Below, piece after piece: positions 9,040 to 43,069 of a stretch of 64,000 bases of DNA. The DNA is from a virus, in IMG/VR virus record IMGVR_UViG_3300023174_000096, positions 41,517 through 105,516 of that record, one strand, 5' to 3'. Under the pieces are notes generated by a model that saw only the letters and a program-made list of their open reading frames with translations, was not told where the DNA came from and searched no databases. Within the stretch, counting starts at the first letter, position 1, and the number at the start of each line of letters is the position of its first letter. Both the position numbers and the translations under genes were made by a program.

Positions 9040-9288
9040 GTGTGGCATGTCTACGTCCTCACCAGCACCGTCCGGGCTGTCACCTACGTCGGCTGCACCA
9101 ACGACGTGGGGCGCAGGGTGCGCCAGCACAACGGAGAACTCTCTGGGGGCGCGCGGTTCACCCAACGATGGCGACCGTGGGTGCTTGGGGTGGTGTACGG
9201 GCCGTTCGACGGGCGGGGTGATGCCCAGCGGGCCGAGAGGCTGGTGAAGCGCCTACGAGGCCCCGCGCGCCTACGATGGCGGGCGTAA
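9040..9288 (+). CDS. GIY-YIG nuclease, Slx1-like
   Basis: [28 protein letters not shown]...RPW; A..AE helix. Confidence 0.85.
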
Positions 9289-9310
9289 CTACCCGTGGAA
9301 AGGAGCACCC

Positions 9311-9808: not shown

Positions 9809-9858
9809 CCTGTCAGTATCCTCGGCCTTCCAACGTCCAGAGGGGCGTAATGAAGACC

Positions 9859-19882: not shown

Positions 19883-20985
19883 ACGCCCTCCAAGAGGGGT
19901 GCGAGGCTAGGTAGGCCGAAAATGTGGGGGTGGGTCTTCAAGTTCCTACCGGGGGTTTCCCATCGGTCGATCACCGACGAATAGCGGGAAGAGAGTGCTT
20001 CCCACAAAGGGTCACGCATAGACAAGACCGTGACGGGCTGGCCCGTCTCCCGCACGAAGGCGTCGATCTTGGCTTGGGTTGCGACCGTACCGTCCTCGTG
20101 CCTCCACCCCTTGAGCTCTACCCATCCGGCGGGAATCCCGTCCGGGTGATGGGCCAGTAGGTAGAAGTCGGGGGTGTAGTAGCTGCCGTCCGAGAGATGG
20201 AACAGCTTGGGCTCGTAGTTGTAAGGCACCGCAAGATGAAGGAGCACCCGGGCAAAATTCGCCTCGAACGTGGACCGACAGTAGTGCGGGATGCCCGCAC
20301 GGAATCCGCAGATGCCACGCCCACCACCTTGTGGTGCGAGGGTGCCGTTACGGATGCGGGACTCAAGGCTCTTGCGACGGGTCTCTGGGTCCCTCATCCC
20401 AATCATCGCACCGTCAGAGAATCGAAGGCGAAGGGCGTCAGATAGCTTTTCTGAATGGTCGGGTCTGGAACGAATTTCTGCAAGGATGACCCGTCCTCTG
20501 CGGCCAAGAGCCGCGCGATATTCTGGAGTGAGGTTATGGGACTTCCCCTTCCCACCCCTTGAGACGGCTTCTCGATGAGCTTCCGTTAGCGGCTTCCCGC
20601 GCCATGCCCCAGCGGCCTCGACCAGACGGGCGGACTGCATCTTCCGCTCGTCCTCACTGGACCACCTTGCCTTCGCCTTCTCGGCCATCTTCTGCTTGCA
20701 AGCGTCCGAGCGAGTGCGAGCTCCCGGGGCGTCCGTGAGGGCATCGGGATAGGCGGCGAGGTAGTCATCACGGGTCATCCCGTGAGCCGAGGCCAAGTGC
20801 GGTGTCAGCATTCGTCGAGACACCCCGCACAAGAGGCAGGAGACACGGTCGGTGGCTGGACTCCCCCGCTTCTGGAGGGACGGAGCCTTCCGGCACCCGT
20901 CGCACTTCACGTTGCGTGTCGCGGGTTTGTACCCCTCAACCTCGACACCACACGCCTTGCACCGGGGCATTTTGGCAGCATCCAT
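19879..20985 (-). CDS. free-standing putative homing endonuclease (zinc finger + NUMOD3-like repeats + PD-(D/E)xK nuclease)
   Basis: CLLC..HLASAHGMT..Y; RGKPLTEAHREAVS; RSTFEANFA..YEP..YTPDFYL..VELKGW. Codon usage is less GC-biased than the neighbours. Confidence 0.7.
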   Translation of the reverse strand: MDAAKMPRCKACGVEVEGYKPATRNVKCDGCRKAPSLQKRGSPATDRVSCLLCGVSRRMLTPHLASAHGMTRDDYLAAYPDALTDAPGARTRSDACKQKMAEKAKARWSSEDERKMQSARLVEAAGAWRGKPLTEAHREAVSRGGKGKSHNLTPEYRAALGRRGRVILAEIRSRPDHSEKLSDALRLRFSDGAMIGMRDPETRRKSLESRIRNGTLAPQGGGRGICGFRAGIPHYCRSTFEANFARVLLHLAVPYNYEPKLFHLSDGSYYTPDFYLLAHHPDGIPAGWVELKGWRHEDGTVATQAKIDAFVRETGQPVTVLSMRDPLWEALSSRYSSVIDRWETPGRNLKTHPHIFGLPSLAPLLEGV

Positions 20986-21739: not shown

Positions 21740-22045
21740 TCAGACGGGAGGTTTGCCGCGAAAGGCACGGATGCTGGGGGCGTTGGTTTCCACGACCTCC
21801 TTCGACCCGTCTTCCCACTGGATGAGAGACTTGAAGGGCTTCGCGGAGGTCATCTTGAGGATCGTCCCGTAGACCGATCCGGTTCCCTTGGCGTCCGACT
21901 TGACCACAGAATACCCGACCTTCCAAGGTGAGGTGGCACCCTTCCCCGGAATAGCCGCTTCTTTGAGGAGGGGCAGGAGGTGCGGACGAAGTTCGGGCTG
22001 TTGGTGCGCCAGCCGGATGACCTTGGAACGGAGAGTGTTGCTCAT
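21740..22045 (-). CDS. leader-bearing small protein (copy 3) with SH3-like beta domain
   Basis: [31 protein letters not shown], then WKVGYSV..GTIL..IQWEDG. Confidence 0.7.
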   Translation of the reverse strand: MSNTLRSKVIRLAHQQPELRPHLLPLLKEAAIPGKGATSPWKVGYSVVKSDAKGTGSVYGTILKMTSAKPFKSLIQWEDGSKEVVETNAPSIRAFRGKPPV

Positions 22046-27763: not shown

Positions 27764-30700
27764 CTATCGTTGTCGTAAGTGAACGTCACATCACCGAGGA
27801 CGAGATACTCCATCGAGTTGGGGTCGATGTCTTTGTCCCCCAAATCCGTCGCGGTGATGTAGGTACACCAGTAGGTGTGGTTCGACGGCGCGTCCCCCAC
27901 GGGGAGGGACACCAGCACTCGATTCCTTACGGAGCCAGTGCCCGTCCCGTAACCGGGAATCACCTGCCCGTCCGCCCCGATGATGTAGGCTTGGTTGGGC
28001 CGCATCCCGAGGTTCTGGGGCGCGGTCACTTGCAGTGTGAGCTCCGCGTCGTCTTGGAAGACCCCACGGAACTCATTGGGAGGCCCGCCACCCGTGAGCG
28101 TCGGCGCGTCGAGTTCTTGGAGAATCAGCCACACGGCGTACTGACCGTTGGACCATGCGTTCACTCGGAACGAGTCCCCGAAGGTCGCCGTGGACAGGTC
28201 ATTGCGGACGATCTGGTAGCCCGCCTGACGGACCATCTTGGTGAGCGGGACGACGACGTAAGAGACGCCCGCCGTCCCGTCGATCTCCGCGATCACGTCA
28301 CTCCGTCTCATCGGGTCGCCCAGCTTGAGCGTCCCGATGAGGTACTGGAGGTTGTTGCGGATCGCGATGTCCACGTTGGTGCGGTCGAAGCCCCGCTTGA
28401 GGATCACCGTGGCGGTGATGTCCACGGGGATCTGGACGGCTTGCTTCGCGAGCACATCCGACGTGGCGTGGGCCATGTCATCGAGATCCTGCTGGAGCAC
28501 CGAGGTCACGAGGTTGGTCTGGTACGCCACCACAAAGTTCTCGTAGTAGCTGTACGAGATGGTCACCGTGTCACCATCCGCGATGGCGCTCCCCTCCGTG
28601 CGTCGGATGCCCGCTGCGACGGTGCTGGACCCCTCGATGATGGTGTAGTCGGGCGATCCGCTGGGGTCGTAGGGGCCTTTGTAGGTGACCGTCCCTGATT
28701 GGTTCTTGACCACGATGGAAAGGGTCTCCGCGCCGAGGTTGTACAAGAACTCGGTGTAGAAACCCGTGACGACGTGGGGCTCGTCCACCACGGGGATGAG
28801 GTTGCCCGAGGGGGACACCACCGTGGGGTCAGCGGACTGATTGATCTGGAGGTAATCCCCCGCTCTGGTCGAGTACCCGAGGCCCAAGGGGCTGTTCGGG
28901 CGCACGAGCGTGTAGAGGGAGATGTCCACCGGGCCGATCACCTCGCCCGTCACGTTCAGAATCCCCGACACGGGCTGGCGCGTGAAGACGTGGCGATTCC
29001 CGAGACGGAACCGGAAGTCCCCCAGCACGATGTCGGTGAGGGTGACCGGAGGCTGCGGGATGGTGATGTCAAGCTGGATGGTGTTGAAGTTGAGGTAGGT
29101 GACATTCGTGAGGTCGAACGTCTCTCCCGTGGTTACATTCTTCAGCCCGAGTCCGTAGGTGGGGTAGTCGAGCATCTGGGCGAGCGGGTTGTCGGGCGTG
29201 ACCTCTTCGCTCACCACCCGGAAGACGTAGTTGAGCGGGCTCCCGATCACCACGAACTGCACGTCGTTGCGGCGCTCGTAGGTGAAGGCAAAAATGTCGT
29301 TGACGGTCACGGTGCGGACACCCCGCGCCCACACGTCCACCTTGCCTCCCAAGTGACGCTTGAGGGTGGTGTCGTAGTCCCGCTGCATCAGCGGGTCGCC
29401 CGCCCGGACCACGACGTTCTGAATCGTCCCCGGCACCCCTGCCGCGACTTGGGCCATACCCTGCGTCGTCCCGGTGTCCACGGACGCGAGGGCCGTGCGT
29501 GCCCTCGCCGCCAACTGGGCGTTGGTTTCCTCGTTGGCTCCCCCGAAGGTGGCAGCGTCGTTGGTGACGGCCATCCCGTACACGTTGGAGCCCGTCAGTT
29601 GGCGCGGTCCGACGTTGGTCACCGTCCCCACGGTCAACGCCCTCACGGGCACCGTGACCGAGTACTCCCGCGTCGAGGGGTTGTAGTAGCTGGCGAGCAG
29701 GGCCACGTCCATGACCGCCGAGCGAGACGTGCGGAACTGCACACCCCCGCCGAGGATCACGGTCCCAAGCGGGATGGTGATCGTGCGCGTCGGGGGAGAC
29801 AACGTGAAGAACCGCACTTCTCCCACGGCGGGAGTGCCCGCGCGTCGGATGACCCCGAAGTTCGCCGCGATCTTGTCGAAGCTCCCGTCGATGACGCTCT
29901 GCACGTCGTCCACGTTGGAGTAGAAGAAGGCCGCTGCGAGGGCCGTCTTGTACGCCGACGAGGCGGGAGGGTTGGATACCCCCGAGCCCGTGGGGTCGTC
30001 CACCAAGAGCAGGGTGTCGAACGAGCTCGCGCGGTACACATAGTCGAGCAGCAACCGAAGGCGCTCTGCCTCCGTGGTGAACGGGTCCAAGAAGATGTCC
30101 CGCACCACCGAGCCGGGTTGGACCGCGATATCCGGGTTCTGTCGGTAGATGGTCGCGATGGCGCTCTCAAGCATCTGCTGGCGCGTGACCGCCGTGAGCC
30201 CGTTGATCTGCTGGCGCACCTGCGCTGGAGCGCCCGCCACCTCCGAGGAGAAGTAGGACTCGTACTCGACCTTGATGACCGGGTCGTAGTAGATCGCCGT
30301 CGCGACGTAGTAGAGGAGATCCGTCGAGGGGGTGCTCGCGAACACGCCGCTGAACACCGTGGCGGGGTTGGACAGGGCGTTCGCGGTGCGGACGTGCGTG
30401 AAGCTGAAGTAGTTGATCGTCGTGACCGACGACACGGACACGTTGGTGCGGATGGTGGTGATGTCACTGGGGAGCTCCACCCGCGAGTCCACGTCCGTGG
30501 ACAGCACCACCTCGCTGCTGTTCTCTTGGTCGATCTTGGCGCGGTAGTAGAGGGGCGTCGCCGTCTGCGCCACTGCGTCCGCCGTGAGGGCGTACAACTC
30601 TGTCGAGTTCTGCACGGGGGTGCCCGTGGTCACCCGGTTCACGTTGATGATCCGGTAGCCGTCCGCGCCGCCCCCCTGCGTCGTGGCCGCGTAGAAGTTG

Positions 30701-31131
30701 TACCCGACGATGCGGCTATCAGTGAGCCCCTCGACCGTCACCTTCACCGAGCCGTCGAGGCGCTCGATGGTCACGCCCGTGGGAGGGAGGAACACGTCGG
30801 CCTCCTCCGGGGGGAGGAGACGGACCACCACCGTCGCCGGGACGCTGCGCCCGCCCGCGAGGTTGACCGCCCGGACTTGGATCGTGTTGTCGCCCGAGAA
30901 GAGTTCCAGCCCGGTGGGGTACGCGCTGGGGTTCGGGACGGTGAACCCCGTGCCCACGAAGGCCACGAGCGTCGGGTCAGCCGTGAAGGGTTGCCCGAAG
31001 AGAGACACCTCCACGTCCACGGTGTCGTCGGGGAGGGTGCCCGTGAAGAACCGGGTGGTCTGCGTGGTCGAGAACGTGGAGGTCTCCCGCAACACGTTGT
31101 CGGGACCAAGGAACTGCACAGAGGTCGCCAT
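27760..31131 (-). CDS. baseplate J-like wedge protein
   Basis: PGSVVRDIF, DKIAANFGVIRR, IPLGT, GGANEETN, GGKVDVW, SDVIAEIDGTAGVSYV. Confidence 0.85.
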   Translation of the reverse strand: MATSVQFLGPDNVLRETSTFSTTQTTRFFTGTLPDDTVDVEVSLFGQPFTADPTLVAFVGTGFTVPNPSAYPTGLELFSGDNTIQVRAVNLAGGRSVPATVVVRLLPPEEADVFLPPTGVTIERLDGSVKVTVEGLTDSRIVGYNFYAATTQGGGADGYRIINVNRVTTGTPVQNSTELYALTADAVAQTATPLYYRAKIDQENSSEVVLSTDVDSRVELPSDITTIRTNVSVSSVTTINYFSFTHVRTANALSNPATVFSGVFASTPSTDLLYYVATAIYYDPVIKVEYESYFSSEVAGAPAQVRQQINGLTAVTRQQMLESAIATIYRQNPDIAVQPGSVVRDIFLDPFTTEAERLRLLLDYVYRASSFDTLLLVDDPTGSGVSNPPASSAYKTALAAAFFYSNVDDVQSVIDGSFDKIAANFGVIRRAGTPAVGEVRFFTLSPPTRTITIPLGTVILGGGVQFRTSRSAVMDVALLASYYNPSTREYSVTVPVRALTVGTVTNVGPRQLTGSNVYGMAVTNDAATFGGANEETNAQLAARARTALASVDTGTTQGMAQVAAGVPGTIQNVVVRAGDPLMQRDYDTTLKRHLGGKVDVWARGVRTVTVNDIFAFTYERRNDVQFVVIGSPLNYVFRVVSEEVTPDNPLAQMLDYPTYGLGLKNVTTGETFDLTNVTYLNFNTIQLDITIPQPPVTLTDIVLGDFRFRLGNRHVFTRQPVSGILNVTGEVIGPVDISLYTLVRPNSPLGLGYSTRAGDYLQINQSADPTVVSPSGNLIPVVDEPHVVTGFYTEFLYNLGAETLSIVVKNQSGTVTYKGPYDPSGSPDYTIIEGSSTVAAGIRRTEGSAIADGDTVTISYSYYENFVVAYQTNLVTSVLQQDLDDMAHATSDVLAKQAVQIPVDITATVILKRGFDRTNVDIAIRNNLQYLIGTLKLGDPMRRSDVIAEIDGTAGVSYVVVPLTKMVRQAGYQIVRNDLSTATFGDSFRVNAWSNGQYAVWLILQELDAPTLTGGGPPNEFRGVFQDDAELTLQVTAPQNLGMRPNQAYIIGADGQVIPGYGTGTGSVRNRVLVSLPVGDAPSNHTYWCTYITATDLGDKDIDPNSMEYLVLGDVTFTYDNDR

Positions 31132-32231
31132 CAGTAGTTCCCCAAGGACAGGCGGTTGGTTCCCGGCAGCGCGAACGTACCGGGGGCCGAGTACACGATG
31201 GAAATGGTCACGGGTTCAGACGAGTAGTTCCGCACGTCTACCTCGATGAGGAAGGTCGTGGGGTCGTTGGGGGACGGGGCCACGGCGATGTTGTCCACGG
31301 AGAAGAGCCTCTCCTTGGCCGTGACCCGCTGGTACTTGGACTGCGCGTTCTGGAGGTTCTGGAGGTTCGTGAGGGCTTGGCTCACCGACTGACGGATGCC
31401 AATCGCCGTGCCCCCCAGCACCTTGCTCCCGATACGCGAGACGAGGTCAGACCCATACCAAGTGTGGTAGATGTTCGACCCGAGCTCCGTCAGGATCATC
31501 TTGAGGCACATCTGGTAGAGCAGGTTCTCGTCCTGCACCACCAGCGCCTCGCCCTGTGGGTCGAAGCGGTAGTCGTTCTCGACCTCCGTCGCCCTGCAAC
31601 GGAGGCACAGGTACGGGGCCACAGGATACGTCACCGTGAAGAACGCTTCCTGCTTGACGACGGAGTCGAACCCGATGTAGTAACCGAGAGAATCCACGGC
31701 GTCTTCGGGGTTGACCGCCGTGCGAGAGTAGAGCCTCCACGGGGGGATCACCGTTTTGCCACGGTCGCCGCTCTGCTGGTCGAAGCCCAAAGGCTCCAGC
31801 GCCGAGCCCGTGAGTTGAATCCTCGACGTGGGGCCGGGAGTCGCTGTGTCCGTCAGGGTGATGTACCCGTTGGGGGAGGACACCACCACGAGCCCCCTCA
31901 CTGCTGCGGTGAGGGTGGCAGACACCTGCGCCGCCGACAGGTAGCCCGACGAGAAGTTCACCGTCGCCGCGCCCGCCCCCGTGGTGAGCACCAGCGTGCG
32001 GGTAGCCGTCGTGATCTTGTAGGGCTCGCGGCGGTAGGACCGCATCGTCGCCGGGGTCACCAGCCCCGTGAAGGGGGAGACAATGGCGTCGTCGTTGACG
32101 CGGACTTGCACCAGCGTCGGTCCAGAGATGGGCTTGGCCGTGTACAGCGTGCGTCGGTCGGTGCCGAGAGAGACCCTCTCCTCACCGATGACGTGGCTAC
32201 AAGTGAAGGCAAGCTGTACGTCGCGCGACAT
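31131..32231 (-). CDS. baseplate wedge protein, gp25/GpW-like C-terminal domain
   Basis: LYQMCLKMILTELGSNIYHTWYGS, located upstream of baseplate J. Confidence 0.75.
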   Translation of the reverse strand: MSRDVQLAFTCSHVIGEERVSLGTDRRTLYTAKPISGPTLVQVRVNDDAIVSPFTGLVTPATMRSYRREPYKITTATRTLVLTTGAGAATVNFSSGYLSAAQVSATLTAAVRGLVVVSSPNGYITLTDTATPGPTSRIQLTGSALEPLGFDQQSGDRGKTVIPPWRLYSRTAVNPEDAVDSLGYYIGFDSVVKQEAFFTVTYPVAPYLCLRCRATEVENDYRFDPQGEALVVQDENLLYQMCLKMILTELGSNIYHTWYGSDLVSRIGSKVLGGTAIGIRQSVSQALTNLQNLQNAQSKYQRVTAKERLFSVDNIAVAPSPNDPTTFLIEVDVRNYSSEPVTISIVYSAPGTFALPGTNRLSLGNY

Positions 32232-32267
32232 GGTTCACCGTGTGGTCGCGATAGCGGGGAAACCGCT

Positions 32268-33164
32268 TCAACCAATGGCCGTCCACGCCTCCTCGCCGTT
32301 GGGGGCGTCGTCGAGGAGCATGGGCTGCGCCGGGTTCGGACCCGTCTGGCGCGGGCGACTGAAGTCCCGCGACCCGTCGTTCAAGGTGTCCGGGTAGAAC
32401 GCCGTGTCGATCTGGTCCACGATGGCCGAGACGTTGTGCGTGATCGCGTACTCGCCGTTGTCCGTCCACTGCAACCCCGGCACAGCCCCTCCCACGGCTT
32501 GGGGGAGGAGCTCGTCGCGCTCGATGGTGAGTTGCTCGCGGAGGTCGCAGAGCTTGATGATCCGGGCCTCCAAGTCGTTCCGCAGCGTTCGGATTTCTTG
32601 GGTGACCCACCCGCGCATGGCGTGGACCGTCCGGGTCATGTCCGCCGACTGCTGGGTGTAGCTCACGGCGTTGCCAAATCTCCGTGGGGGGTACCGCCAC
32701 AGGGGGAGCCACCCGCCGATGTAGATGCCGCCCGTCATGGGGTCCGTGCTCCCGGCGCTCGCGATGCCACCGTAAGGCTGCGTCTCTTGGACGTTGCTGG
32801 CCGGGGTCGCCTGTGGGTTGTCGAGGTCCGTCTGCGACTGCTCCGTCGCGTCCTCGACCACCTGCACCGCGTTGGGCGTCAGGAACATGGAGATGTCGAA
32901 GGGGTTACCCCCCATCGCGATGTACGCGCGGAGGAGCTTCTCGATGCTGGTGTTGGGGGTGACATCCAGCCCGATGCGGCGCTCCGTCATCGCGTTGGGA
33001 TTGCTGGCGTTTCGCTCGTAGAGGATGCGGATTTCTCCAATGCGGGCGAGCTCCGCGTTGATCGTCGTGACCCGCGCCATCACGTCCTGACGCTGGTTGA
33101 GGATGAAGCGTCGGAACTCACGATAGGCCCCGGCTCGGAAAAATCCTGTCCATCCGAAACTCAT
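32268..33164 (-). CDS. probable virion structural protein
   Basis: 298 aa with GGAGG RBS, at the head of the baseplate block; coiled-coil segments. Confidence 0.55.
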   Translation of the reverse strand: MSFGWTGFFRAGAYREFRRFILNQRQDVMARVTTINAELARIGEIRILYERNASNPNAMTERRIGLDVTPNTSIEKLLRAYIAMGGNPFDISMFLTPNAVQVVEDATEQSQTDLDNPQATPASNVQETQPYGGIASAGSTDPMTGGIYIGGWLPLWRYPPRRFGNAVSYTQQSADMTRTVHAMRGWVTQEIRTLRNDLEARIIKLCDLREQLTIERDELLPQAVGGAVPGLQWTDNGEYAITHNVSAIVDQIDTAFYPDTLNDGSRDFSRPRQTGPNPAQPMLLDDAPNGEEAWTAIG

Positions 33165-33295
33165 GGCCTAACCTCCGAAGTTGTTGATGTTTTCTCACGA
33201 CGAAGACGATGAGCCTCGATTGCAGACGGGCGCATCTTCTCCTTGGTTTCAGGAGTGTTCGTTCGACGGGGACGTGCCTGTGCTGCTTTTCGCAT
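33161..33295 (-). CDS. 44-aa basic ORF with NUMOD3-like motif (possible endonuclease remnant; not in ORF track)
   Basis: MRKAAQARPRRTNTPETKEKMRPSAIEAHRLRREK... ATGA overlap with the next gene; late motif upstream. Confidence 0.4.
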   Translation of the reverse strand: MRKAAQARPRRTNTPETKEKMRPSAIEAHRLRREKTSTTSEVRP

Positions 33296-33302
33296 TCGTT
33301 CC

Positions 33303-33596
33303 CTACTCTAGCGGGGGGATAGACGAACTGAAGGCTCGCTCCCGGTCGAGCATCTGCACGATGGCCCGAGCTCGCGCCCGCCGGAAGTTCACCACCTCAC
33401 CGAAGAGGTAGAGGGCGAAGGCCGCTCCCAAGGTGTACACCCCGTAGACGGCCTTGTCGGGCTCGTGAGCGACGGGGGCAACGAGCGCCACGGTTGCTCC
33501 GATCATGGCCAAGAAAAAGGCAGGGACGCCCAAGTAGCTGCGTCCGAGGTTGGCACGGGTGCGGAGGTTTAGCTCCTCTTTGTCCGTCAGGTCCAT
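33303..33596 (-). CDS. two-TM membrane protein
   Basis: Two hydrophobic helices (VPAFFLAMIGATVALVA; VYGVYTLGAAFALYLF). Confidence 0.6.
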   Translation of the reverse strand: MDLTDKEELNLRTRANLGRSYLGVPAFFLAMIGATVALVAPVAHEPDKAVYGVYTLGAAFALYLFGEVVNFRRARARAIVQMLDRERAFSSSIPPLE

Positions 33597-33659
33597 CTCA
33601 TCACCCTACGCGAGCGTAATCGGTTACAGGAGCACCCTTGGCTCCGTTGAGGTTTTACG

Positions 33660-34103
33660 ATGGCCACCATCATCCCGACAGAGGGGGAGCTCCTTGAGGT
33701 CCCCGCCCCCGGCAACTCCACGGAGGCCCAGACCGTTCTGGGCGCGCTTGGGGTCGTTGCACACGGAGCCCCGGATGGCTCATCGTGGTGGGTTCTCGAC
33801 CCCCCTCTCGTGGGCGACACGGCCCCCAACCACCGGGCCACCCGGTTCTACGCCAACCGTGTGGGGGGTACAGCGCCACGGACACTGTACGGCAAGGTGC
33901 TGTACATGAGCGCCGACGAGACCAAGGCCCTCAACGGCGCGAAGCCCGCTGAGGAGATGGTGCCGATCCGTGGGCGCACCTACGAGGTGCGGGGCCTCCT
34001 CAAGGCGATTGGTGCCCGGTGGTTCGCCGCCGAGAAGGTCTGGAAGATCGCCAAGGCCAACCTCGCGGAGGCCGAAGAGATCGTGAGGCGCGGGTGCGGG
34101 TGA
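33660..34103 (+). CDS. hypothetical protein
   Basis: 147 aa; C-terminal TYEVRGLLKAIGARW..KVW is a motif common in phage proteins. Confidence 0.6.
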   Translation: MATIIPTEGELLEVPAPGNSTEAQTVLGALGVVAHGAPDGSSWWVLDPPLVGDTAPNHRATRFYANRVGGTAPRTLYGKVLYMSADETKALNGAKPAEEMVPIRGRTYEVRGLLKAIGARWFAAEKVWKIAKANLAEAEEIVRRGCG

Positions 34104-34242
34104 AGAGGAAGCCCAAGGGGCCTCCCCGGTGTGCCCTCAAGGGCTGCGTGGGGTGGGGCGGCACTTGCGTGTGCCCACGCATCTCGTGGGCTCCCACAGA
34201 GAAATCCACGGGGGTCGGCGTCAGGGCTTGGCTGGGCTTCCG

Positions 34243-34401
34243 TCAGTCGCGTCGGAAGTAGTCGTAGAGCACCCTGCCCATGTCCCGGTCACAGAGGTAG
34301 CAACGGATGCCCTTGGGAGTGATCCGCAGCCACTTGTGCTCGCAGGGGTCTTCGACGAGGGATTCCCAGCGATCCTCTTGGTCAGGCTCCTCGTCCTGCA
34401 T
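34243..34401 (-). CDS. 52-aa zinc-ribbon-like protein (not in ORF track)
   Basis: MQDEEPDQEDRWESLVEDPCEHKW..RCYLCDRD; CTAT motif 14 nt upstream. Confidence 0.5.
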   Translation of the reverse strand: MQDEEPDQEDRWESLVEDPCEHKWLRITPKGIRCYLCDRDMGRVLYDYFRRD

Positions 34402-34468
34402 ACCCTACGGGGACGATAGACGCTCTGTAACCGTCTTCACGAGGGGGTAGCATCGCAGAGGAGAACCG

Positions 34469-35020
34469 ATGACTTTGACCGTGATTTGCGGACCCATGTT
34501 CGCAGAGAAGTCCACCACCCTCTACCGCTACGTCTCACGCGCCCTGCGCTCCAAAAAGCGCGTGGATGTGGTCGTGCCCACGGTGGACACCCGCAGCAAG
34601 GGACAAGTCGTCACCCACTCCGGGCTCACCCTTGAATCGCTGGGAGTGACGCCGAGAACGGTGGCCACGTCGTCGGACCTGTACCGGGCGATGCCCACGC
34701 CCGCGCCCGACCTGATGGTGATCGAAGAAGCCCAGTTCTTCGACATCGACCTCCCGCTGTGGGTCGGGAAGCTCGTCGAGCGGGGTGTTCACGTCGTCGC
34801 GGCGGGGCTCGACCTCACCAGCGAGGGCGGACCCTTCGGCCCGATGGGGCACCTGATGTGCCTCGCGGACCGGGTCGAGAAGCTCACGGCGATCTGCGCG
34901 TGCGGTGCGGAGGCGACCCGGACGATGTGCAGGGTGCGGAAGGACGGCGCGGTGCTGGTGGGCGGTGGCGGTGAGTACGTCCCGGCGTGCCTACCGTGCT
35001 GGATGAAGCGCCCGCGCTAG
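34469..35020 (+). CDS. tdk: thymidine kinase
   Basis: GPMFAEKST, EEAQFF, AGLD, KLTAICACG, VGGGGEYVPACLPC. Confidence 0.9.
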   Translation: MTLTVICGPMFAEKSTTLYRYVSRALRSKKRVDVVVPTVDTRSKGQVVTHSGLTLESLGVTPRTVATSSDLYRAMPTPAPDLMVIEEAQFFDIDLPLWVGKLVERGVHVVAAGLDLTSEGGPFGPMGHLMCLADRVEKLTAICACGAEATRTMCRVRKDGAVLVGGGGEYVPACLPCWMKRPR

Positions 35021-35023
35021 TCG

Positions 35024-35398
35024 TTAGCGGGCGAGTTTCGTCAGAGCCTCAAAGGCTTCTTGCATCGGACGGCTCTGCGAGCGACGGCAGTCCATCAGGC
35101 TGTGTTGGACCTTGTCAAGGATCTTGACCAAGAAGTCATGACCCTGCCCGGGGTTCTGTTCGGCCCCGTCGAGGACGTGGGCGAACGCAAGGCGCGCGTT
35201 TTCTTCAGCCATCCGCAGGTAGGCGATGGCGTCGTTCATGGCTTCCTTCGCCGCCCCGTAATCCGACTTGCTCGAATCGACCGACTCGAAGACCATCGGT
35301 CCCGCCGTCTTGGTGAGGAGGGGCATGAGGTGCGAACGGAGCTCCGGGTTGGTGTGAGCCAGCCGGATGATCTTGGAACGGAGTGCTTGATCGCTCAT
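35024..35398 (-). CDS. leader-bearing helical protein (copy 4)
   Basis: MSDQALRSKIIRLAHTNPELRSHLMPLLTKTAG. Confidence 0.7.
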   Translation of the reverse strand: MSDQALRSKIIRLAHTNPELRSHLMPLLTKTAGPMVFESVDSSKSDYGAAKEAMNDAIAYLRMAEENARLAFAHVLDGAEQNPGQGHDFLVKILDKVQHSLMDCRRSQSRPMQEAFEALTKLAR

Positions 35399-35439
35399 TG
35401 GGATGGAACCTTTTCTTACGGGGTGTGGTGAACAGTCGG

Positions 35440-38400
35440 TCAAACGAGGCCCGACCAGCCCTTGAGGGAGGCGAGGATCTTCTTGGCGGCGGACGCCCCC
35501 TCCGTGACCTTCACGGGCTTGGTGGGGGACTCTTCGTTCGTGCGGTCGATCACCGTGAGGTAGACACTGGTGTCACCGAGGGTGCATTGGGACAGCAAGA
35601 ACTGCTGGTACTCGGGAGCCCCCTGCGCGTTGTCCTTGGGCTGGGGGTAGACGGTGAGGTACACGCTGAAGGCCATCCCGTCCACGGTGCGGTCGCCCAC
35701 CTTGCAGGGGACGAAGTGCGGGTGGACGGTGATCGACAGGGAGTTGGGGAAGCGCATCCCCGCCCGCACCTCGTCCACCGCCGCGCTGGAGATCAGTCGG
35801 AGATCCTTGGGCATGATCTTCTGCGAGAGGGCCGAGAGAACCTCCCGCGCCTGTGCCCGGAACGCCTCAAACCGCTCGTAGAGCATCTGGGCATCCCGAA
35901 GCGCCGCGCTGATGGTGGCGTCACTTGGGTGCTCGGTGAGGTAGGTGCGGCAGTGGGCGATCACCCGCTCGGCGTGTCGCATCCCATGCTCAGACTTGGC
36001 GAACACCTCCGTCTGCGAGTGCAGGGTGAGCGCCGCGATGCGCCCCACCACGGGCATGGGCACCGTCTCCGCGTAGGTGTCCAGCACCGCTTGGATGTCC
36101 GACGCCAGTGCCTCCAGCGTCTCCAGTTCGCCCGTGATCGTGGCCACGGGGTCGATGGCATCGAGGTGCTGGGACACGACACGGCGAACAGATGCACTTC
36201 TCACGGGTACCTCACAGACAGTCGGAGGGGGGTCTTGGCGACCCTTCCAGAACACGGTGACGATCTCGATGCGCCCTGCGTCGGTGGCGAACACCACTTT
36301 CAGCCGGGTCTTGGGGTCCACCCACTCAATCTTCTCTTGGGAGAGCAGGGCTTCGTACTGGTCGGGGTTCACCTTCTGGAGCCCCTGCGCGTAGACGATG
36401 AACGAGTTCAGCGCAGCCTCCACGTCCTTGACCGTCACGGATCGGTAGTCCATGCGGAACTGGGCGTGGGGGAGGATGGTGAAGCTCTTGAAGCCCGACC
36501 CGCTCTCAGTGGTCAGCGGGTAGACCTTCCGGGCGTCCGGGTTGGACAGATCACCCGTCTCGGCGTCGTCGGTGAGCTTCTCCCGCAGAGCGGGGTTGCG
36601 GATCGCGCGGTTGATCCGGTCCACCACCTTGCACGGGCCACCGTTGAGCCCCAGCGGTGGTGACAGGTCGGCGGTCTTCTTGGCCTTCTCGTCGGCGGCT
36701 TCCATCTGACCCTTCACCTTCTCGGCCCACGCTCGTCCGGGGTCACCACCCCAGATCAGCCACGACACGTTGCCCTTGTCGTTCCACGGCTCACCCTTGT
36801 TCTCCGGGGCGACGCCCTTGTTCTTCTCGTGGCGCGAGAAGAACGCGGTCATCTGCTTGATGGTGTCGGGCGAGATGTTGTCCCGGTTCTTGAGGTTCAC
36901 CGCCCGCTGCACGCCGCTCCCGATGCCCTGCTCGGCAGCTTCCGCCGGGGTGAGCCCGCCCTTGTTCGACGGGCTGGCTTTCTCACGGTACTCCAAGCCC
37001 TTTTCCGCTGCGTCGGCCACCGACTGCGGGGGCTTGAAGTCGATGTGCTCGTACTTCTTGGGCACGTCGGCGGTTCGGGTGCGGCGGTGGTTCATGGTCA
37101 CGTCTTGATGATGAAGTTCACGGCGAGCCACGGCTGCATATTGGCGTGCGCGCTGCCACCGCCCGTCGAACCCGTGGTGAACGTGTGCGTGTAGACGAGC
37201 GAACCGTTGGGCGACACGGACGGGGGATGCGCGGAGCCTCTCTCGCACGCGGTCGTTGAGTTTCACGTCTTGGTCGGCCAAGTTCGGGTCCGACAGGAGG
37301 AACTCGCGAGCAATGGGGACAAGGCTCGCGCGAGCCCTGCCCGTCAACGAGAACTCTTGAATGAGCGCCATGTTGTCCACTGCGGGTTTCCGCAGGGCTT
37401 CAAGGTACTTCCTTGCCTCGTCACTGGACCATCCGCTGGTGTTCTGCTTGAACTGCTCGCGCTCGTTCGGCGTCAAAAAGTCCAGCACCCTCCCCGCGAT
37501 CCCGATGTCGGCAAGCTCCAACAAGAGCTCGACCGTATGGTTGCCGTTCGCCAGTTGCTTGGTGAGGTATGCCGCGAACGGGGGGTTCTCTTGCACCATC
37601 TCGACGATCACGTCGAGTAGGCCAAGGGAACGCATCACTTTGAGGCCCATCGTCGCCTTGGGTGACTTGAGGATGTCCCCGACGAGGATGTTCCCGACAG
37701 CTTCCCACGGCATATTCTTGAGCTTCGCGGCGTTGCGCCTCACAGAGGCCATAGCATCGGGCGAGATGGTCAAGTCATACCGCAGCAAGAACTTCAAGAC
37801 CCGGAGCATCCGAGTCGGGTCGTCGCTGAAGGTCTTGTCGGGGTCCACGGGCGTCGAGATGAGCTTCTGCTCAAGGTGCTGACGACCCAGCCCCGTGAGG
37901 TCAATCACTTCGGCCTTGTCAGGGCCGTTGGCGAGGTCATGCATCCGCCACAGCAGGGTGTTGAACGTGAACTCTCGGCGGAACACATCCTCTTCAATGG
38001 TCGCGGGGGACACGTCCGTGGGCTTGTATCCCTTGCCTTTGCCCCCCGCACCCTCGTAGGACTCCTTGCGGGCGTTGGCGATCTCGATCACCTCGCCCTT
38101 CAGGTTGATCCCGTCGAGCAGCCACTCCCCCTTCACGGTGAGGATCACCACCCCGTACTGGTTGGTCGCGAGGTTCGTCGGGACAGGGATGGCGTCCACC
38201 ACCTTTCGGGCGAACCACTCTGAATCCCGGCCCGCCGACACGGAGTCCACCACCACGTCGATGTCCTTGATGGGCACACCGAGGATGAAGTTCCGCACGG
38301 CACCGCCGACGACGTAGACGTGTCGGGCGACGCCAGCGTCACGGGCCACCTCAGACAGAAAACTCATCAACGCGATGGACTTGGCGTGTGCCGAGGATGC

Positions 38401-39309
38401 CATCAGGTACCGGGAAGCGAGCTTCACCGGGTCCACGGACTTCCTGACCTGTCCGGTCTTGGGTGACAGTTCCACGAGCTCTTTGCCTCCGTTGCGGTAG
38501 CTAAACGCCCTCACCGTGATCTTGGGCGAGTAGTCCTTGGGCAGACGGTCCTCCAGCCCCTCGTAGTCCATCTTGCCGGGGATGACGTAGAAATCCAACT
38601 CCCGGTCGGTGAGGTTCATCACCATCTGGGAGGTGGTCGCCATCGAGTCCGTGTCTCGCACCGGGTCGTTGTGGGTGCGCGGCCCTTCGGAGCGGTTCCG
38701 CATGAGGTCCGGGCCAAGGTCCGTGGGCGTCTTGCTCTGACGGAGGATCTGGGTGGACTTCTCCTTGCGGGCGGCGGACGAGAGATACCCCTCGCCGTCC
38801 GTGTAGCCCGTCCCGCCCGTGTCGCGCCCGTGGTTGGTGCGGACATGGATCTCACTGCCCTCCAAGGGCTTGGTGACGCAGTCCCCGTTGATGAGCTCGA
38901 CCGAGAACGCCCGGTTCGGGTCACTCACGAACGAGTGCCCTTCCAGCCCCCCAAGGTGGGAGCACAGGGAGTCAATGGCGTCCTGCACGGTGCGGCACGA
39001 GAGGGCCTTGAGGATGCGGGCACCGTCGAGCGCCTTGCCCTTCTTGCCCTTCTTGTCCTCGACAGCCGTGGCGGTGCCTTCGGCCTCATCGAGGCCCACG
39101 GCGAGCGCCGCGTTGGCGATCCCGATCCCGTGCTCGTTCAACCCCTCGCACCACCCCGTGACGTTGTCGCGCATATACGCGACCTCGACGCCGTCGAGGA
39201 GCTCGCGGACGAGGGTGACTCGTGGGGTGTACTTGCGGTCACGGTTCTTGAGGAGAGCCCTCTTCCCGTCCCACACACCAGCAGCAATGACGCAAGCGAG
39301 TCTGTCCAT
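35440..39309 (-). CDS. multi-domain polyprotein: Ntn hydrolase + class II CCA/poly(A) nucleotidyltransferase + phage head-associated domain + DUF4258/BECR-like RNase + unknown domain
   Basis: C6 VIAA..KNRDR..GLNEHG..RTNHG; VGGAVRN..KDIDVV..RREFTFN..DDPTRMLR; PP..AEKGLE..FFSRH..WLIWGGD; HAQFRMDYR..IVTVFW. Confidence 0.75.
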   Translation of the reverse strand: MDRLACVIAAGVWDGKRALLKNRDRKYTPRVTLVRELLDGVEVAYMRDNVTGWCEGLNEHGIGIANAALAVGLDEAEGTATAVEDKKGKKGKALDGARILKALSCRTVQDAIDSLCSHLGGLEGHSFVSDPNRAFSVELINGDCVTKPLEGSEIHVRTNHGRDTGGTGYTDGEGYLSSAARKEKSTQILRQSKTPTDLGPDLMRNRSEGPRTHNDPVRDTDSMATTSQMVMNLTDRELDFYVIPGKMDYEGLEDRLPKDYSPKITVRAFSYRNGGKELVELSPKTGQVRKSVDPVKLASRYLMASSAHAKSIALMSFLSEVARDAGVARHVYVVGGAVRNFILGVPIKDIDVVVDSVSAGRDSEWFARKVVDAIPVPTNLATNQYGVVILTVKGEWLLDGINLKGEVIEIANARKESYEGAGGKGKGYKPTDVSPATIEEDVFRREFTFNTLLWRMHDLANGPDKAEVIDLTGLGRQHLEQKLISTPVDPDKTFSDDPTRMLRVLKFLLRYDLTISPDAMASVRRNAAKLKNMPWEAVGNILVGDILKSPKATMGLKVMRSLGLLDVIVEMVQENPPFAAYLTKQLANGNHTVELLLELADIGIAGRVLDFLTPNEREQFKQNTSGWSSDEARKYLEALRKPAVDNMALIQEFSLTGRARASLVPIAREFLLSDPNLADQDVKLNDRVRERLRASPVRVAQRFARLHAHVHHGFDGRWQRARQYAAVARRELHHQDVTMNHRRTRTADVPKKYEHIDFKPPQSVADAAEKGLEYREKASPSNKGGLTPAEAAEQGIGSGVQRAVNLKNRDNISPDTIKQMTAFFSRHEKNKGVAPENKGEPWNDKGNVSWLIWGGDPGRAWAEKVKGQMEAADEKAKKTADLSPPLGLNGGPCKVVDRINRAIRNPALREKLTDDAETGDLSNPDARKVYPLTTESGSGFKSFTILPHAQFRMDYRSVTVKDVEAALNSFIVYAQGLQKVNPDQYEALLSQEKIEWVDPKTRLKVVFATDAGRIEIVTVFWKGRQDPPPTVCEVPVRSASVRRVVSQHLDAIDPVATITGELETLEALASDIQAVLDTYAETVPMPVVGRIAALTLHSQTEVFAKSEHGMRHAERVIAHCRTYLTEHPSDATISAALRDAQMLYERFEAFRAQAREVLSALSQKIMPKDLRLISSAAVDEVRAGMRFPNSLSITVHPHFVPCKVGDRTVDGMAFSVYLTVYPQPKDNAQGAPEYQQFLLSQCTLGDTSVYLTVIDRTNEESPTKPVKVTEGASAAKKILASLKGWSGLV

Positions 39310-39364
39310 AGGGGGGTTGGTCCTACGGGCGCAGGGTGATAGAACGGTTAAGGGCGGGGGGTCG

Positions 39365-39844
39365 TTAGAAGAGCTCGACGAGGCCCGAAGCCTGAATCCA
39401 AGCCACGTTCACGGGCGCACCGAAGTGATTCGCGACGATGGTCATCTCAATCATGGCGCGGGGCATGAGGGCGTTCATCGCCGTGCGGTGCGGAAGGCTG
39501 TCCTGCATCAGACGGTCGAGCTCGTTTCTAGCTTCGTCGGTGCTGGCCTCTTGTCGAAGGGTGGCCATCGCCGCAAACACTTCGCCCTCGTCGAAGGTGC
39601 CTTCCGCGAGGGACTGTTCTTCAACGGAGGTGACATCCGGCTCACGGAAATTGATCGTCCACAGGGGTGCCCAGCGGGCGACGAACTCGCGCAGGGCTTC
39701 GGGCGTCTCGCACGCCTTCAACCCGGCGGTGTAGTCGGTCATCACCGAATCGCCGTTGACGGCGAACGGATACGGGGGGAGTTTGCGGATCGCAGCCCTG
39801 ATGGGTTCAAGGGCGGGGTCGTCGGCGGGGTGCGGTCGTTCCAT
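39365..39844 (-). CDS. hypothetical protein
   Basis: ATG at 39844, 7 nt after GGGCGTAAC. Confidence 0.6.
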   Translation of the reverse strand: MERPHPADDPALEPIRAAIRKLPPYPFAVNGDSVMTDYTAGLKACETPEALREFVARWAPLWTINFREPDVTSVEEQSLAEGTFDEGEVFAAMATLRQEASTDEARNELDRLMQDSLPHRTAMNALMPRAMIEMTIVANHFGAPVNVAWIQASGLVELF

Positions 39845-39879
39845 GCGGGGAGTTACGCCCGCATGGAACGGGCGGGGGA

Positions 39880-40113
39880 TCAGCCTTCGTAGCCAGCGGG
39901 CTTGGCCTTCGCGGCGGCGAGGCTCGCGTCGCGCGCGGCTTGATCCTTCGTGACGGTCTTGCCCTTGACCGCCGGGGTCTCCTGTCCCCACTCCGACACG
40001 AACACCAGAACGGTGCCCACGGGCTGGGTCTTGGGGTCCACGGGGGTCTTGGCGGCGTCGCCCATCACATAGACGAACGGGGTGGCCTTCTCACGGGGGG
40101 TGCGGGTAGTCAT
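39880..40113 (-). CDS. small hypothetical protein
   Basis: AGGAG RBS; MTTRTPREKATPFVYVMG. Confidence 0.55.
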   Translation of the reverse strand: MTTRTPREKATPFVYVMGDAAKTPVDPKTQPVGTVLVFVSEWGQETPAVKGKTVTKDQAARDASLAAAKAKPAGYEG

Positions 40114-40132
40114 GGTCGGGGGTCTCCTTGGA

Positions 40133-41233
40133 TCAGGGGGTGTGCCCGCCCGCGACACACGCGGCGGCGAGGCGGTCGAGGGCTTCGTGGACGCTCATCT
40201 GGGTGCTGCCGCCCCAATCCGACGAGTTGTCCGGGTAGTAGGTGGTGAAGCTCTGGTACTGGTCCCACTCCCCCACATCTTGGTTCTCACGGACGTAGGT
40301 GCCGGGGGCCGGGAACGTGGCGAGGTAGCCGGGGCCGAAGAACGTGTCGTTGCCGATCCAGCAGGGCGACCCGTCCGTCTGCACGACGGCGCTGCCAAAC
40401 ACGAGGAAGGCGTACCAGCGGATCGACGTGCCGTTCTTCAGACGCAGGTACAGGGTGGCGTTCGCGTAAACCGCGAAGCTACCAAACTCGTAGTTGCCGA
40501 AGCGGAAGTCACAGTTGTCGAGCGTGAAGGTCGTGTCCGTGCCCTCGTAGGTGCGGCACTGGAACACCGACGTGTCGAGGGTCACGTCCTGCTCGTCGCT
40601 AATCGGGTCACCGGGCGCGGCGTTCCCGTCCCAGCCCAGATTGCGAATCGTGAGGGTCGAAGTCTCGGCGGACACCGAGTCGATCTCGAACGCGCCCGCG
40701 TTGTCGATGATGACGAGCACGCCCGCGACGAAGCCGTTGACGAAGTTGTCCACGGTCACGGTGGCGGTATCGCCCACGTTGGGCATCGTGAAGGCGGACG
40801 TTGTGTACGTCGCCGTCCCGCTTCCTTGCCCGCGGAAGAAAATGTTCTTGAGGCCCGCGCACCCGTAGATGTGGCACGGCCACTCGTAGCCGCCGTCCGC
40901 TTCAAGGTACTGAAGGTACTGGTAGGGGCGGAAGCTGTAGTCGTAGTCGTCCCAGCCGTAGGACACGCCCACGATGGTGGTGTTGTTGAGGTGCCACTCA
41001 CCCGGTGGGAGGTAGATGTCTTCCTGCTCCGGGTTGAAGATGTAGATGCTGGTCTCGGGTGCGGAGCTTGATTGCACCGCCGCCACGGCCTCGCCCCACG
41101 TCGCCACCGCCCCGGTGGGGAGGGGATCGCTGAAGGGAGCCCACACGATGGTGGGGACAGAGCGGTTCGGGGCCGCGCCGACTTGGTTGAGCGCCGTCTG
41201 TTCGGTCGCTCCGACTGCTGCGAAGATGGGCAT
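40133..41233 (-). CDS. acidic beta-rich protein, probable virion/tail accessory
   Basis: 366 aa, beta-strand-rich, very few Lys. Late motif plus AGGAG RBS upstream. Confidence 0.55.
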   Translation of the reverse strand: MPIFAAVGATEQTALNQVGAAPNRSVPTIVWAPFSDPLPTGAVATWGEAVAAVQSSSAPETSIYIFNPEQEDIYLPPGEWHLNNTTIVGVSYGWDDYDYSFRPYQYLQYLEADGGYEWPCHIYGCAGLKNIFFRGQGSGTATYTTSAFTMPNVGDTATVTVDNFVNGFVAGVLVIIDNAGAFEIDSVSAETSTLTIRNLGWDGNAAPGDPISDEQDVTLDTSVFQCRTYEGTDTTFTLDNCDFRFGNYEFGSFAVYANATLYLRLKNGTSIRWYAFLVFGSAVVQTDGSPCWIGNDTFFGPGYLATFPAPGTYVRENQDVGEWDQYQSFTTYYPDNSSDWGGSTQMSVHEALDRLAAACVAGGHTP

Positions 41234-41362: not shown

Positions 41363-43042
41363 CTACTCCTCGTCCTTGAACGTGGGGGTGAACACGGGCT
41401 TCTTGCCCTTCGGTGCCTTCTCCTGCACCCTCATCTTCTCTCGGGCCTTCTCGGCGCGCTCGCCCTTAGCCATGTCGTGGGCCTTGGGTCGGGCCATGCA
41501 CTTGAAGGGGGTCTTCCCGCCCCGGGTGAGGTCTTTCCAGTTCGGGTCGTCCGTGAGGTCGCCGCACGGCCCGATGATGTCACCGGGCTCGTAGGTCTTC
41601 TTGGTCCCGTCCTCGCGGGTGATCGTGCGCTTCACGGGCGAGATCGCCACCCAATCTCCCCACTGGGCCTCACCGGGTGATTTGCCCTTGCCCTGACCGT
41701 GGCCGCTGAACCACTCGTCTAGGCCCCCGTGACCTACGTCTTTTTTGGCCTTTCCCTTGGCGGACAGGTAGCGGGACGCAACACGGGCGGCGCTTGCGAA
41801 GCGCCCACGGTCCTTCTTGGCGAGGAACGCCTTGAACCGCTCGATCTGATCGCGGGTCATGTCCCGGCCCAGAACGAAGTGCGCGAACACCTCCGCGAAA
41901 TCCTCCTCCGTGGCGGTCCCCCCGTACTCCGACACGGCGGCGACTTCTTTGTAGAAGCTGTCGAACCGAGCGCGGTCGCCCGCGTCCATGAACTTGAAGT
42001 AGTAGCGGTGCCCTAGCTCATGGATGAGGAGCTCGACCAAGAAGGGCTTGGGCAACAAGAACACCACGACGTGGTCGGGGCCGATGACGTAGTGCGCCCC
42101 CACTCCGAAGTGCTTGCCCAGCGGGTTCTCACCACCGCACTTCGGGCACCCGACGAAGATCGGGCCATACCAGAGGTCGCCAAAGCCCTTCTGGTCGAGC
42201 AGCGCCTTGGCCTTCTGGAAGTAGGGGATGTAGTCAGACAGACCCCGGGGGTCACCGGGGTCGGGGCGGGTGATGAGGTTACGGTCGGGCTCGCCGTCGT
42301 ACACCAGCTTGACCTTCCCGATGTCGAACTCCAGCAGGATCTCGTCGGGATCGTAGGACGAGCCCCCCGAGTATTTGCTGAGAAATGTGGTGATCGCCCG
42401 CAGGAGTTTGCCCGAAAGGATGTCCTCGACCTTGGCGAGTGCCTCCCGGGCGTAGTCCTCGTACCCCTTCAGCGCAGCGGCGAACGGGTCGTCAGGGTTC
42501 ACCCGCTGGTAGAAGCCCAGTATATTCTGCCCGTCCATCGTGTAGGTGTGCGTGCCGGGGGTCATTGCATCCCGGACGTGCTGGAACTTCCCGAGGTCTT
42601 CGTCGAGAAGGTACCTCGCTTCCTTGAGCTCATCACGGACTTTGAGTCGAATCGCCTCAAAGACGCTGGACGGGTCCATTCCACGGGGCAGCAAGCCCTT
42701 CGTGTAGGCCATGTGCTCCCACAGGCGCTCTAGCTCCCGGTCCCGCAGGGACTTGAAGTGCGCGATGAGGTCGTCGAGTGAGGCGTACCGTGGCTTGGGC
42801 GCAAAGGTCTTCTTGACCCACGCACGGATACCCTTGACCCATGCCGGGTCGATCTTGGTCTCCTCCCCGGCGGACTTCTTCGCCCGCCAACCGCCGCCCT
42901 CGTCCTTGTAGAGCTTGAGGGCGTGCCCGACCGCGTAGGCACTGGGCCACTTGGTGTAGCGTTCCTTCGCCTTCGCCTTGCACTTCTCCCAGAGCTCGGG
43001 ATTCGTGGGATCGTTGTCGTCGGCGGCAGTGAAGCGGTCCAT
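41363..43042 (-). CDS. polyprotein-like: PSAYA domain + zincin (HExxH) metallopeptidase + GLDEWF domain
   Basis: WPSAYAVGHALKLYKDEGGGW; LIHELGHRYY..VSEYG..EDFAEVF; GGLDEWF..WVAI..PCG..PFKC. Confidence 0.7.
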   Translation of the reverse strand: MDRFTAADDNDPTNPELWEKCKAKAKERYTKWPSAYAVGHALKLYKDEGGGWRAKKSAGEETKIDPAWVKGIRAWVKKTFAPKPRYASLDDLIAHFKSLRDRELERLWEHMAYTKGLLPRGMDPSSVFEAIRLKVRDELKEARYLLDEDLGKFQHVRDAMTPGTHTYTMDGQNILGFYQRVNPDDPFAAALKGYEDYAREALAKVEDILSGKLLRAITTFLSKYSGGSSYDPDEILLEFDIGKVKLVYDGEPDRNLITRPDPGDPRGLSDYIPYFQKAKALLDQKGFGDLWYGPIFVGCPKCGGENPLGKHFGVGAHYVIGPDHVVVFLLPKPFLVELLIHELGHRYYFKFMDAGDRARFDSFYKEVAAVSEYGGTATEEDFAEVFAHFVLGRDMTRDQIERFKAFLAKKDRGRFASAARVASRYLSAKGKAKKDVGHGGLDEWFSGHGQGKGKSPGEAQWGDWVAISPVKRTITREDGTKKTYEPGDIIGPCGDLTDDPNWKDLTRGGKTPFKCMARPKAHDMAKGERAEKAREKMRVQEKAPKGKKPVFTPTFKDEE

Positions 43043-43069
43043 CACCGCGCGCGGGCGATAGAACGGTTA

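Follow-up and report, generated by a model that had tools for sequence, protein, structure and literature searches.

A five-module polyprotein gene of an uncultured freshwater huge phage, its origin by gene fusion and its putative cargo-processing signals

Results

The locus and its five modules

The stretch of DNA analysed here, called the window below, comprises 64,000 nucleotides (positions 41,517 to 105,516) of the IMG/VR virus record IMGVR_UViG_3300023174_000096, a single record of 105,516 bp, and our subject is an open reading frame (ORF) of 1289 aa on its minus strand, at 35440..39309 with the stop codon included, which we label P0001. The ORF had been proposed in an original prediction made from the letters alone and it holds up, with a G+C content at third codon positions (GC3) of 0.86 that matches the neighbour genes. 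Relative proteins bear P numbers and related loci L numbers, X5, X6 and X9 denote metagenome runs, and G001 is the genome record of the closest relative. The completeness of the record is rated by CheckV as 24%, which corresponds to a genome of roughly 440 kb, and the runs in which the window sequence is present come from 12 studies and represent freshwater and lake metagenomes; the genome that hosts P0001 is that of an uncultured freshwater huge phage. A megablast of the locus against the INPHARED phages gave no match, and tblastn against the phage collection gave no record covering more than 27% of P0001.

P0001 is made of five modules, D1 to D5, all read on the minus strand. D1 (aa 6-290; 38440..39294) follows a propeptide of five residues, MDRLA (39295..39309), and begins with the presumed N-terminal nucleophile Cys6. 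Foldseek places it among the N-terminal nucleophile (Ntn) hydrolases of the C45/AAT type, as had been predicted: it has an alpha-beta-beta-alpha fold like that of isopenicillin-N acyltransferase (2x1c at E 2e-6 and 2x1d at E 5e-6, both with probability 1.0; also 3gvz), and its match to the Pfam family AAT (PF03417) reaches 17.9 bits at E 0.0026, below the gathering score of 23.2 bits, the same family being matched in four relatives with a best E of 4.6e-6. Cys6 is conserved, and a short peptide or linker always stands before it. D2 (aa 305-693; 37231..38397) is a nucleotidyltransferase of the class II CCA-adding or poly(A)-polymerase type, again in agreement with the prediction. It matches PolyA_pol (PF01743) at E 9e-15 with 55.5 bits against a cut-off of 23, phrog_2244 at E 1e-31, and CCA-adding enzymes in Foldseek at E 4e-13 with probability 1.0; its catalytic motif A, GGAVRN followed by DID at aa 335-351, is nearly invariant in the alignment of relatives. 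In its fold and in its GG-x-VR and DxD motifs D2 is like the known class II CCA-adding enzymes and poly(A) polymerases (PDB 1miv, 6q52), but it is embedded in a multi-module phage protein, and its motif variants RRE and DDxxR leave the specificity ambiguous, all NCBIfam equivalog scores for CCA, A or poly(A) addition being far under their cut-offs. In many relatives the D1-D2 pair (here 37231-38397 and 38440-39294) also exists by itself, as a protein of just these two domains.

The other three modules are less easily named. D3 (aa 748-876; 36682..37068) is the all-helical "WGGD" hub domain, which matches phrog_2859 only (E 1e-12) and gave nothing other than unnamed viral clusters in a search of the ESM Atlas. 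D4 (aa 881-1034; 36208..36669) had been taken for an RNase-like domain, and of this a faint resemblance to DUF4258 (PF14076), with a possible RNase fold, is what stands: the match has E 0.11 and 13.2 bits, below the gathering score of 25 bits, and in four relatives the same family is met with a best E of 3.8e-4, all of them under the cut-off. D5 (aa 1051-1289; 35443..36159) is an alpha/beta domain with a long helical bundle, for which the searches gave no informative match. A model of D3-D4-D5 found nothing in the PDB by Foldseek at E <= 0.001, and phmmer against the PDB found nothing for D3-D5 or for the head-protease homologue described below. A wide VIA-align search with the same model, whose size of 551 residues effectively confined it to D5, matched part of this module to helical bundles of a generic kind and gave nothing else.

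Origin of the D2-D3 joint

The original prediction saw in P0001 one designed chain of five domains, and for the present genome this is wrong. The locus was compared with two syntenic relatives, L004 and L005, the latter from a record of 265,895 bp rated 59% complete. In L005 the region holds two genes: one for D1-D2 (705 aa), which stops four codons past the tag RVAQRFAR, and one for D3-D4-D5, with its start at MNHRRTRTA. They are separated by a gene of 255 aa for a tail-collar-like protein (9204-9971), which is read in another frame. The window tracks L005 to base 9229 and resumes at 9878, which is an exact deletion of 648 bp (L005 9230-9877), and the junction falls between window positions 37192 and 37191, at the end of the sequence SPV-RVAQRFAR-L (37192..37230, minus strand) that served as the C-terminal tag of the ancestral D1-D2 gene, since in L005 and in P0010 the D1-D2 protein stops four codons after it. 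The deletion also took the ribosome-binding site and the start of the collar gene. What remains of that gene is its 3' end, read off-frame as aa 707-738 (37096..37191), with a predicted local distance difference test score (pLDDT) below 50, and its TGA stop stands two bases before the ancestral ATG at 37095. There the D3-D4-D5 gene once began, with MNHRRTRTA (37069..37095; pLDDT below 50 at aa 739-745) as its start and short propeptide, which ends in RTA|D and is found as a start in the L005 gene and in P0137, a stand-alone form of 551 aa. On this comparison of genomes we conclude that the single ORF of P0001 arose by a 648-bp deletion which fused the D1-D2 and D3-D4-D5 genes, and that aa 707-738, as the alignment has it, are no evolved linker.

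The deletion is a natural variant and real DNA. The possibility of an assembly artefact that joined two genes, which had been foreseen together with an independent start at MNHRRTRTA, is suggested by the two genes of close relatives and by the stand-alone forms commonly called and commoner in the database (P0010-type, 705-710 aa; P0137-type, 551 aa), but it is largely refuted and we give it hardly any credence, because the junction at 37192 is spanned by contigs of three independent studies (X5 record 5, X6 record 15 and X9 record 22), each of which matches the window identically or nearly so; of the two things foreseen, the start is confirmed as the ancestral one. Other variants seem to coexist with the fused form: run X5 also holds a form without D2 that is like P0002, and the loose ends seen in X6 at 37150 and 37199 are of the kind expected from other variants.

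Linker motifs and module shuffling

All the motifs that had been named along the chain are found where they had been placed, and the joints they mark were examined in the AlphaFold2 models and in the relatives, 193 of which were obtained by a database search, the motif statistics being taken on 89 non-redundant ones. The models have a pLDDT below 50 between confident domains at aa 289-304, 698-719, 739-745, 878-883 and 1035-1051, and the junction motifs lie in these inter-domain segments. Linker 1 (aa 291-304; 38398..38439) holds VKLASRYLMA, and in its place relatives have RVASR[YF]xxA, at which a module breakpoint falls. Linker 3 (36670..36681) is KKTA, with a putative cut before D881. Linker 4 (aa 1035-1050; 36160..36207) has RSA|S followed by the helix VRRVVSQHL, and RVA-type variants are present at this boundary in relatives.

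Both motifs are far in excess of chance. RVAxR[YF] occurs 51 times in comparison with 1.3 expected by shuffling; 49 of these occurrences are external to the modules, being either close to a boundary or right at one end of the protein, N- or C-terminal. The motif [KR]x[AS], with a background of 2.1% per position, stands directly before the Cys of D1 in 19 of 20 distinct contexts and before D4 in 11 of 15 (all 15 having A or S at P1), while before D3 it is found exactly in place in 42 of 112 and displaced by one or two residues in many others. Relatives that start with D3, D1 or D4 either have an N-terminal peptide of 4-16 residues ending in [KR]xA or start at the predicted P1'. The view that recurring motifs punctuate the boundaries is supported family-wide, with two exceptions, aa 707-738 and GRIA|A; the latter had been taken as a boundary mark and is none, because it is a conserved loop within D5 where no relative breaks. 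A stricter rule of site, tag and site in every linker was tried and rejected, as no more than about one RVA motif in two conforms to it.

The same joints are where the proteins are rearranged. By local alignment, the homology to P0001 breaks at the same five places in relatives, and more than 100 architectures are found, with modules permuted or replaced. Their partners, RNA-repair enzymes and unrelated ones, include 2H phosphoesterase/ligase, HAD_SAK_1, PAP2, topoisomerase IB (TopoIB), SOD, PS decarboxylase (PSD), pyrophosphatase (InPase), peptidases including zincin and C39, and inteins. P0002 is 98-99% identical to P0001 and lacks aa 301-742, that is D2, cut exactly at linkers; in general, modules are lost, gained and swapped exactly at linkers even between genomes that are 80-99% identical, so that the question whether homologues shuffle at the motifs is answered in the affirmative. 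Judged by these alignments, D1-D5 are independent evolutionary units whose orders vary.

An upstream neighbour of P0001 behaves in the same way. It is a polyprotein of 560 aa (41363..43045, minus strand) with a DUF5872-like module, a zincin (HELGH) module and a C-terminal module, joined at KKSA|G and RVASRYLSA|K. The zincin module is present in the window and in L004 and absent from L005 (3749-4354), where the join that replaces it is exactly at the linkers KKTA|S and RVASRYLSA|K. As a separate observation, residues 745-781 of P0030 look like a read-through fusion, in which a D2-D3-D4 chain runs into an "MSD..." leader resembling the start of the next gene.

Leaders and tags

Besides the short motifs, a leader of about 30 aa is common to otherwise unrelated proteins, namely four window genes and one C-terminally tagged gene (G000 19475-20044 being included). 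One of the four, a gene of 124 aa, is directed in the same way as P0001 and lies downstream of it (35024..35398, minus strand) with a leader ending in KTA|G; the others are at 8277-8996, 11033-11689 and 21740-22045, also on the minus strand. The four leaders all end in K-x-A, so the resemblance to the [KR]-x-A joints of P0001 that had been pointed out is real. An alignment of nine such proteins from three genomes has 14 invariant positions, and the similarity stops at K-x-A; in all leader-tagged proteins examined, whether the tag is N- or C-terminal, tag and cargo are separated by [KR]-x-A. The leader system is widespread, because a profile of the leader has, at E <= 0.001, matches to 3,033 representative clusters in a library of 1.84 billion proteins, where the leader sits at N-termini, at C-termini and inside proteins, often in two to five copies per protein.

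RVAxRY had also been regarded as a second, shorter targeting helix. A relationship of this motif to the long leader is not borne out by the leader hidden Markov model, which in the polyprotein set recovered two true long leaders (P0030 and P0182) and did not align the RVAxR[YF] sites. A complex prediction of the major head protein with leader residues 1-40 had a score of 0.00, which is no verdict and no evidence either way.

Association of D3 and the motifs with head genes

D3 is found in at least 626 longer proteins, and in several respects it is linked with the phage head, as had been supposed for the WGGD domain. In L015 and L016 it is part of a protein of 661 aa with a Mu-like protease domain, directly after the Portal_Mu gene, and BFVD matches of D3 size (25-47% identity, root-mean-square deviation 3.4-5) lie inside prohead protease, XkdF, portal and Mu gp29 proteins. 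D3 polyproteins stand just upstream of a conserved head module in five related loci (L006, L008, L009, L011 and L012). The order in L009 is portal (phrog_16240, 7.7e-31), D3 polyprotein, two small proteins, head maturation protease (phrog_18299, 1.4e-14), a protein of 237 aa and the major head protein, the last being 86% identical to that of G001 (phrog_2522, 1.8e-48).

The [KR]-x-A motif is itself present among the head proteins. In G001 a scaffold-like acidic protein adjoining the major head protein has 14 [KR]xA[ASGD] sites against 3.9 expected (z 5.2), the top of 232 genes, and some of these sites are kept in relatives. The head-protease homologue has near its C-terminus an R-x-A|S site and then a helix of RVA/IRLA type.

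Some further features of these regions were noted. In G001 (98071-100827; L031 2072-4828) and in L011 (13995-16790) a LAGLIDADG-type intein interrupts the head-maturation-protease homologue, which has no intein in L006 and L009. Directly upstream of the head module of G001 (92345-97526) there is a cluster of RNA-repair-type genes, most of them ending in RVA-like C-terminal tags, which includes a HAD-like protein and a protein of 1156 aa that matches D3 polyproteins of relatives by BLAST. Elsewhere in G001 (32280-34664; L018 12280-14664) a protein of 794 aa has an N-terminal C39-like peptidase domain, and the protein of 468 aa that comes after it ends in an RVA-type tag.

Discussion

Capsid cargo as the preferred explanation

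Regarding the role of P0001, we consider it somewhat probable, from the motifs and gene contexts described above, that it is a polyvalent capsid-cargo protein whose modules would be released at [KR]-x-A, most simply by the head maturation protease. D3 and short basic helical tags would draw the chain into the procapsid, where the head-maturation protease would cut after [KR]-x-A at exposed linkers, freeing the modules and exposing the catalytic Cys of D1; the enzymes would then be ejected together with the DNA and, early in the infection of the next host, would work probably on damaged ends of tRNA or RNA. Because processing would restore the same mature pieces, fusion, fission and swapping at linkers would cost little, which would explain the rampant shuffling. 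The accidental fusion in the window would be rescued likewise, the mature D3-D4-D5 being unchanged and D1-D2 bearing a short additional tail. That a cleavage would be made by the head protease is plausible in view of the place of D3 polyproteins among the head genes of relatives and of the sites in the scaffold-like protein and in the protease homologue itself.

Several points weigh against this explanation. P0001 adjoins baseplate genes and a thymidine kinase gene rather than head genes (Baseplate_J and a sheath-initiator-like protein at 27760-32231, the kinase at 34469-35020), as do its counterparts in L004 and L005, and the head module is absent from the P0001 contig, which is about 24% of the genome. 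The module pool contains other peptidases, namely zincin, C39-like and D1 itself, and Ntn hydrolases usually self-process, so that an external protease may be unnecessary at the site before Cys6. As the D2-D3 joint is accidental, the full-length protein need not be functional. Moreover, just about one in two of the RVAxR[YF] motifs is preceded within 10 residues by a [KR]x[AS] or followed after 8-9 residues by an Ala, and of the sites near the N-terminus of the G001 major head protein, K-T-A is not conserved in relatives and only K-L-A|A is.

Other explanations

An alternative, improbable in our opinion though to be taken seriously, is that the chain is processed by peptidases carried in the polyvalent proteins themselves (zincin, C39-like, or self-cleavage by the Ntn hydrolase), before packaging or after injection. 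Such a role was proposed by Iyer et al. for polyvalent proteins bearing MPTase domains (PMC5512222), and it would fit the zincin module two genes away from P0001, bracketed by the same linkers, the zincin and C39 modules within polyproteins of relatives, the C39-like protein of G001, and the Cys of D1 directly after a [KR]xA site. Yet L005 keeps the tags and sites with no zincin module in the neighbour gene, many tagged single-domain proteins and polyproteins have no peptidase, and the enrichment of sites in the scaffold-like protein together with the site in the C-terminal part of the head protease points to the latter enzyme.

It is about equally unlikely that there is no cleavage, the motifs being flexible joints, docking helices or short recombination homology in a chain that works whole. 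RVAxR[YF] is also present at the very C-terminal ends of proteins, a place at which a cut would set nothing free; closely similar genomes exchange modules exactly at their linkers; and polyvalent proteins of the N4 vRNAP type are packaged uncut (PMC5512222). This is difficult to reconcile with the short N-terminal peptides ending in [KR]xA before D1, D3 and D4, with the proteins that start at P1', and with the constant place of K-x-A between tag and cargo. In addition, an Ntn hydrolase requires a free N-terminal Cys.

Still less probable is a purely cytoplasmic role, in which the modules would be RNA-repair or metabolic enzymes that are never packaged, D3 would serve for example in RNA binding or oligomerisation, and the motifs would be for example turnover signals. 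The locus is not part of a head operon in the P0001 genome, D3 had no recognised fold or function in the searches made, and unpackaged RNA-repair enzymes are common in jumbo phages (PMC7824862); but the fusions of D3 to prohead proteases and portal proteins, and the D3 polyproteins at the head modules of five related loci, in L009 between portal and protease, speak against it.

Relation to known systems

The capsid-cargo explanation has its nearest precedent in the polyvalent proteins of phages and conjugative elements described by Iyer, Burroughs, Anand, de Souza and Aravind in 2017 (PMC5512222). P0001 is like them in joining many unrelated catalytic domains, here five distinct folds, in one phage polypeptide, in the extreme mosaicism of its family and, in relatives, in an apparent linkage to virion genes; for them it was proposed that they are delivered along with the DNA and that their domains may be freed by proteolysis, as we propose, from sequence features, for P0001. 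It differs from them in three respects. The hub is D3 and not MuF, which is absent from P0001, and in relatives D3 occupies the corresponding place, with the portal on one side and the protease on the other, while the window gene adjoins baseplate genes. The payload centres on tRNA and RNA-end repair, CCA-adding enzymes not being mentioned in PMC5512222. The modules are set apart by a conserved linker grammar ([KR]-x-A, RVAxR[YF] or the leader of about 30 aa), and in the literature searched, PMC5512222 included, there is no description of this grammar or of the D3 hub.

A second precedent is the capsid-targeting sequence and gp21 protease of T4, with the propeptide processing by gp245 and gp175 in SPN3US and phiKZ (PMC10052503, PMC5694885). 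In both cases short terminal peptides on unrelated proteins are followed by a motif of three residues, which in the P0001 family is known from the sequences. In the T4, SPN3US and phiKZ systems the scaffold and the protease are cut at the same motif and the cargo is ejected into the host; here it is the scaffold-like protein and the protease that carry [KR]-x-A. The motif is basic-x-Ala in the P0001 family in contrast to [LI]-x-Glu or A-x-E in those phages, and the tags, unlike theirs, stand at either terminus and also between domains, a single chain often having several. Short portable peptides that load cargo into a shell of HK97 fold are also provided by the coat-binding helix-turn-helix of the P22 scaffolding protein and by the cargo-loading peptides of encapsulins. 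The tags of the P0001 family are likewise short, portable, basic and helical, and by analogy may have a loading role, but they are flanked by putative cut sites.

On a wider scale we suggest, more tentatively and at somewhat less than even confidence, that a large clade of uncultured, mostly freshwater, huge phages uses a general and programmable cargo grammar, in which a portable basic helical tag, either a leader of about 30 aa or the short RVAxR[YF], together with a [KR]-x-A site cut by the head protease, loads arbitrary enzymes into the head and releases them. If this is true, fusion, fission and swapping would be near neutral as a side effect, and P0001 would be a recent case in which processing makes up for an accidental fusion. 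Should the tags and cut sites act as proposed, there would be a simple rule, readable from the sequence, for the proteins packed and injected by this group, and hundreds of "hypothetical" genes would become a predicted injected arsenal; the rule would explain the free shuffling of genes and offer a transferable tag with which foreign proteins could be brought into phage heads. The payload of P0001 would be a kit for tRNA and RNA-end repair, probably aimed at host defences that damage tRNA, and it may be speculated that the D1-D2 pair acts on blocked or acylated tRNA 3' ends.

One more large gene was noted outside the window: a giant ORF of about 3,540-3,560 aa is common to both records, at 29781-40397 of G000, just before the window, and at 239279-249961 of G001.

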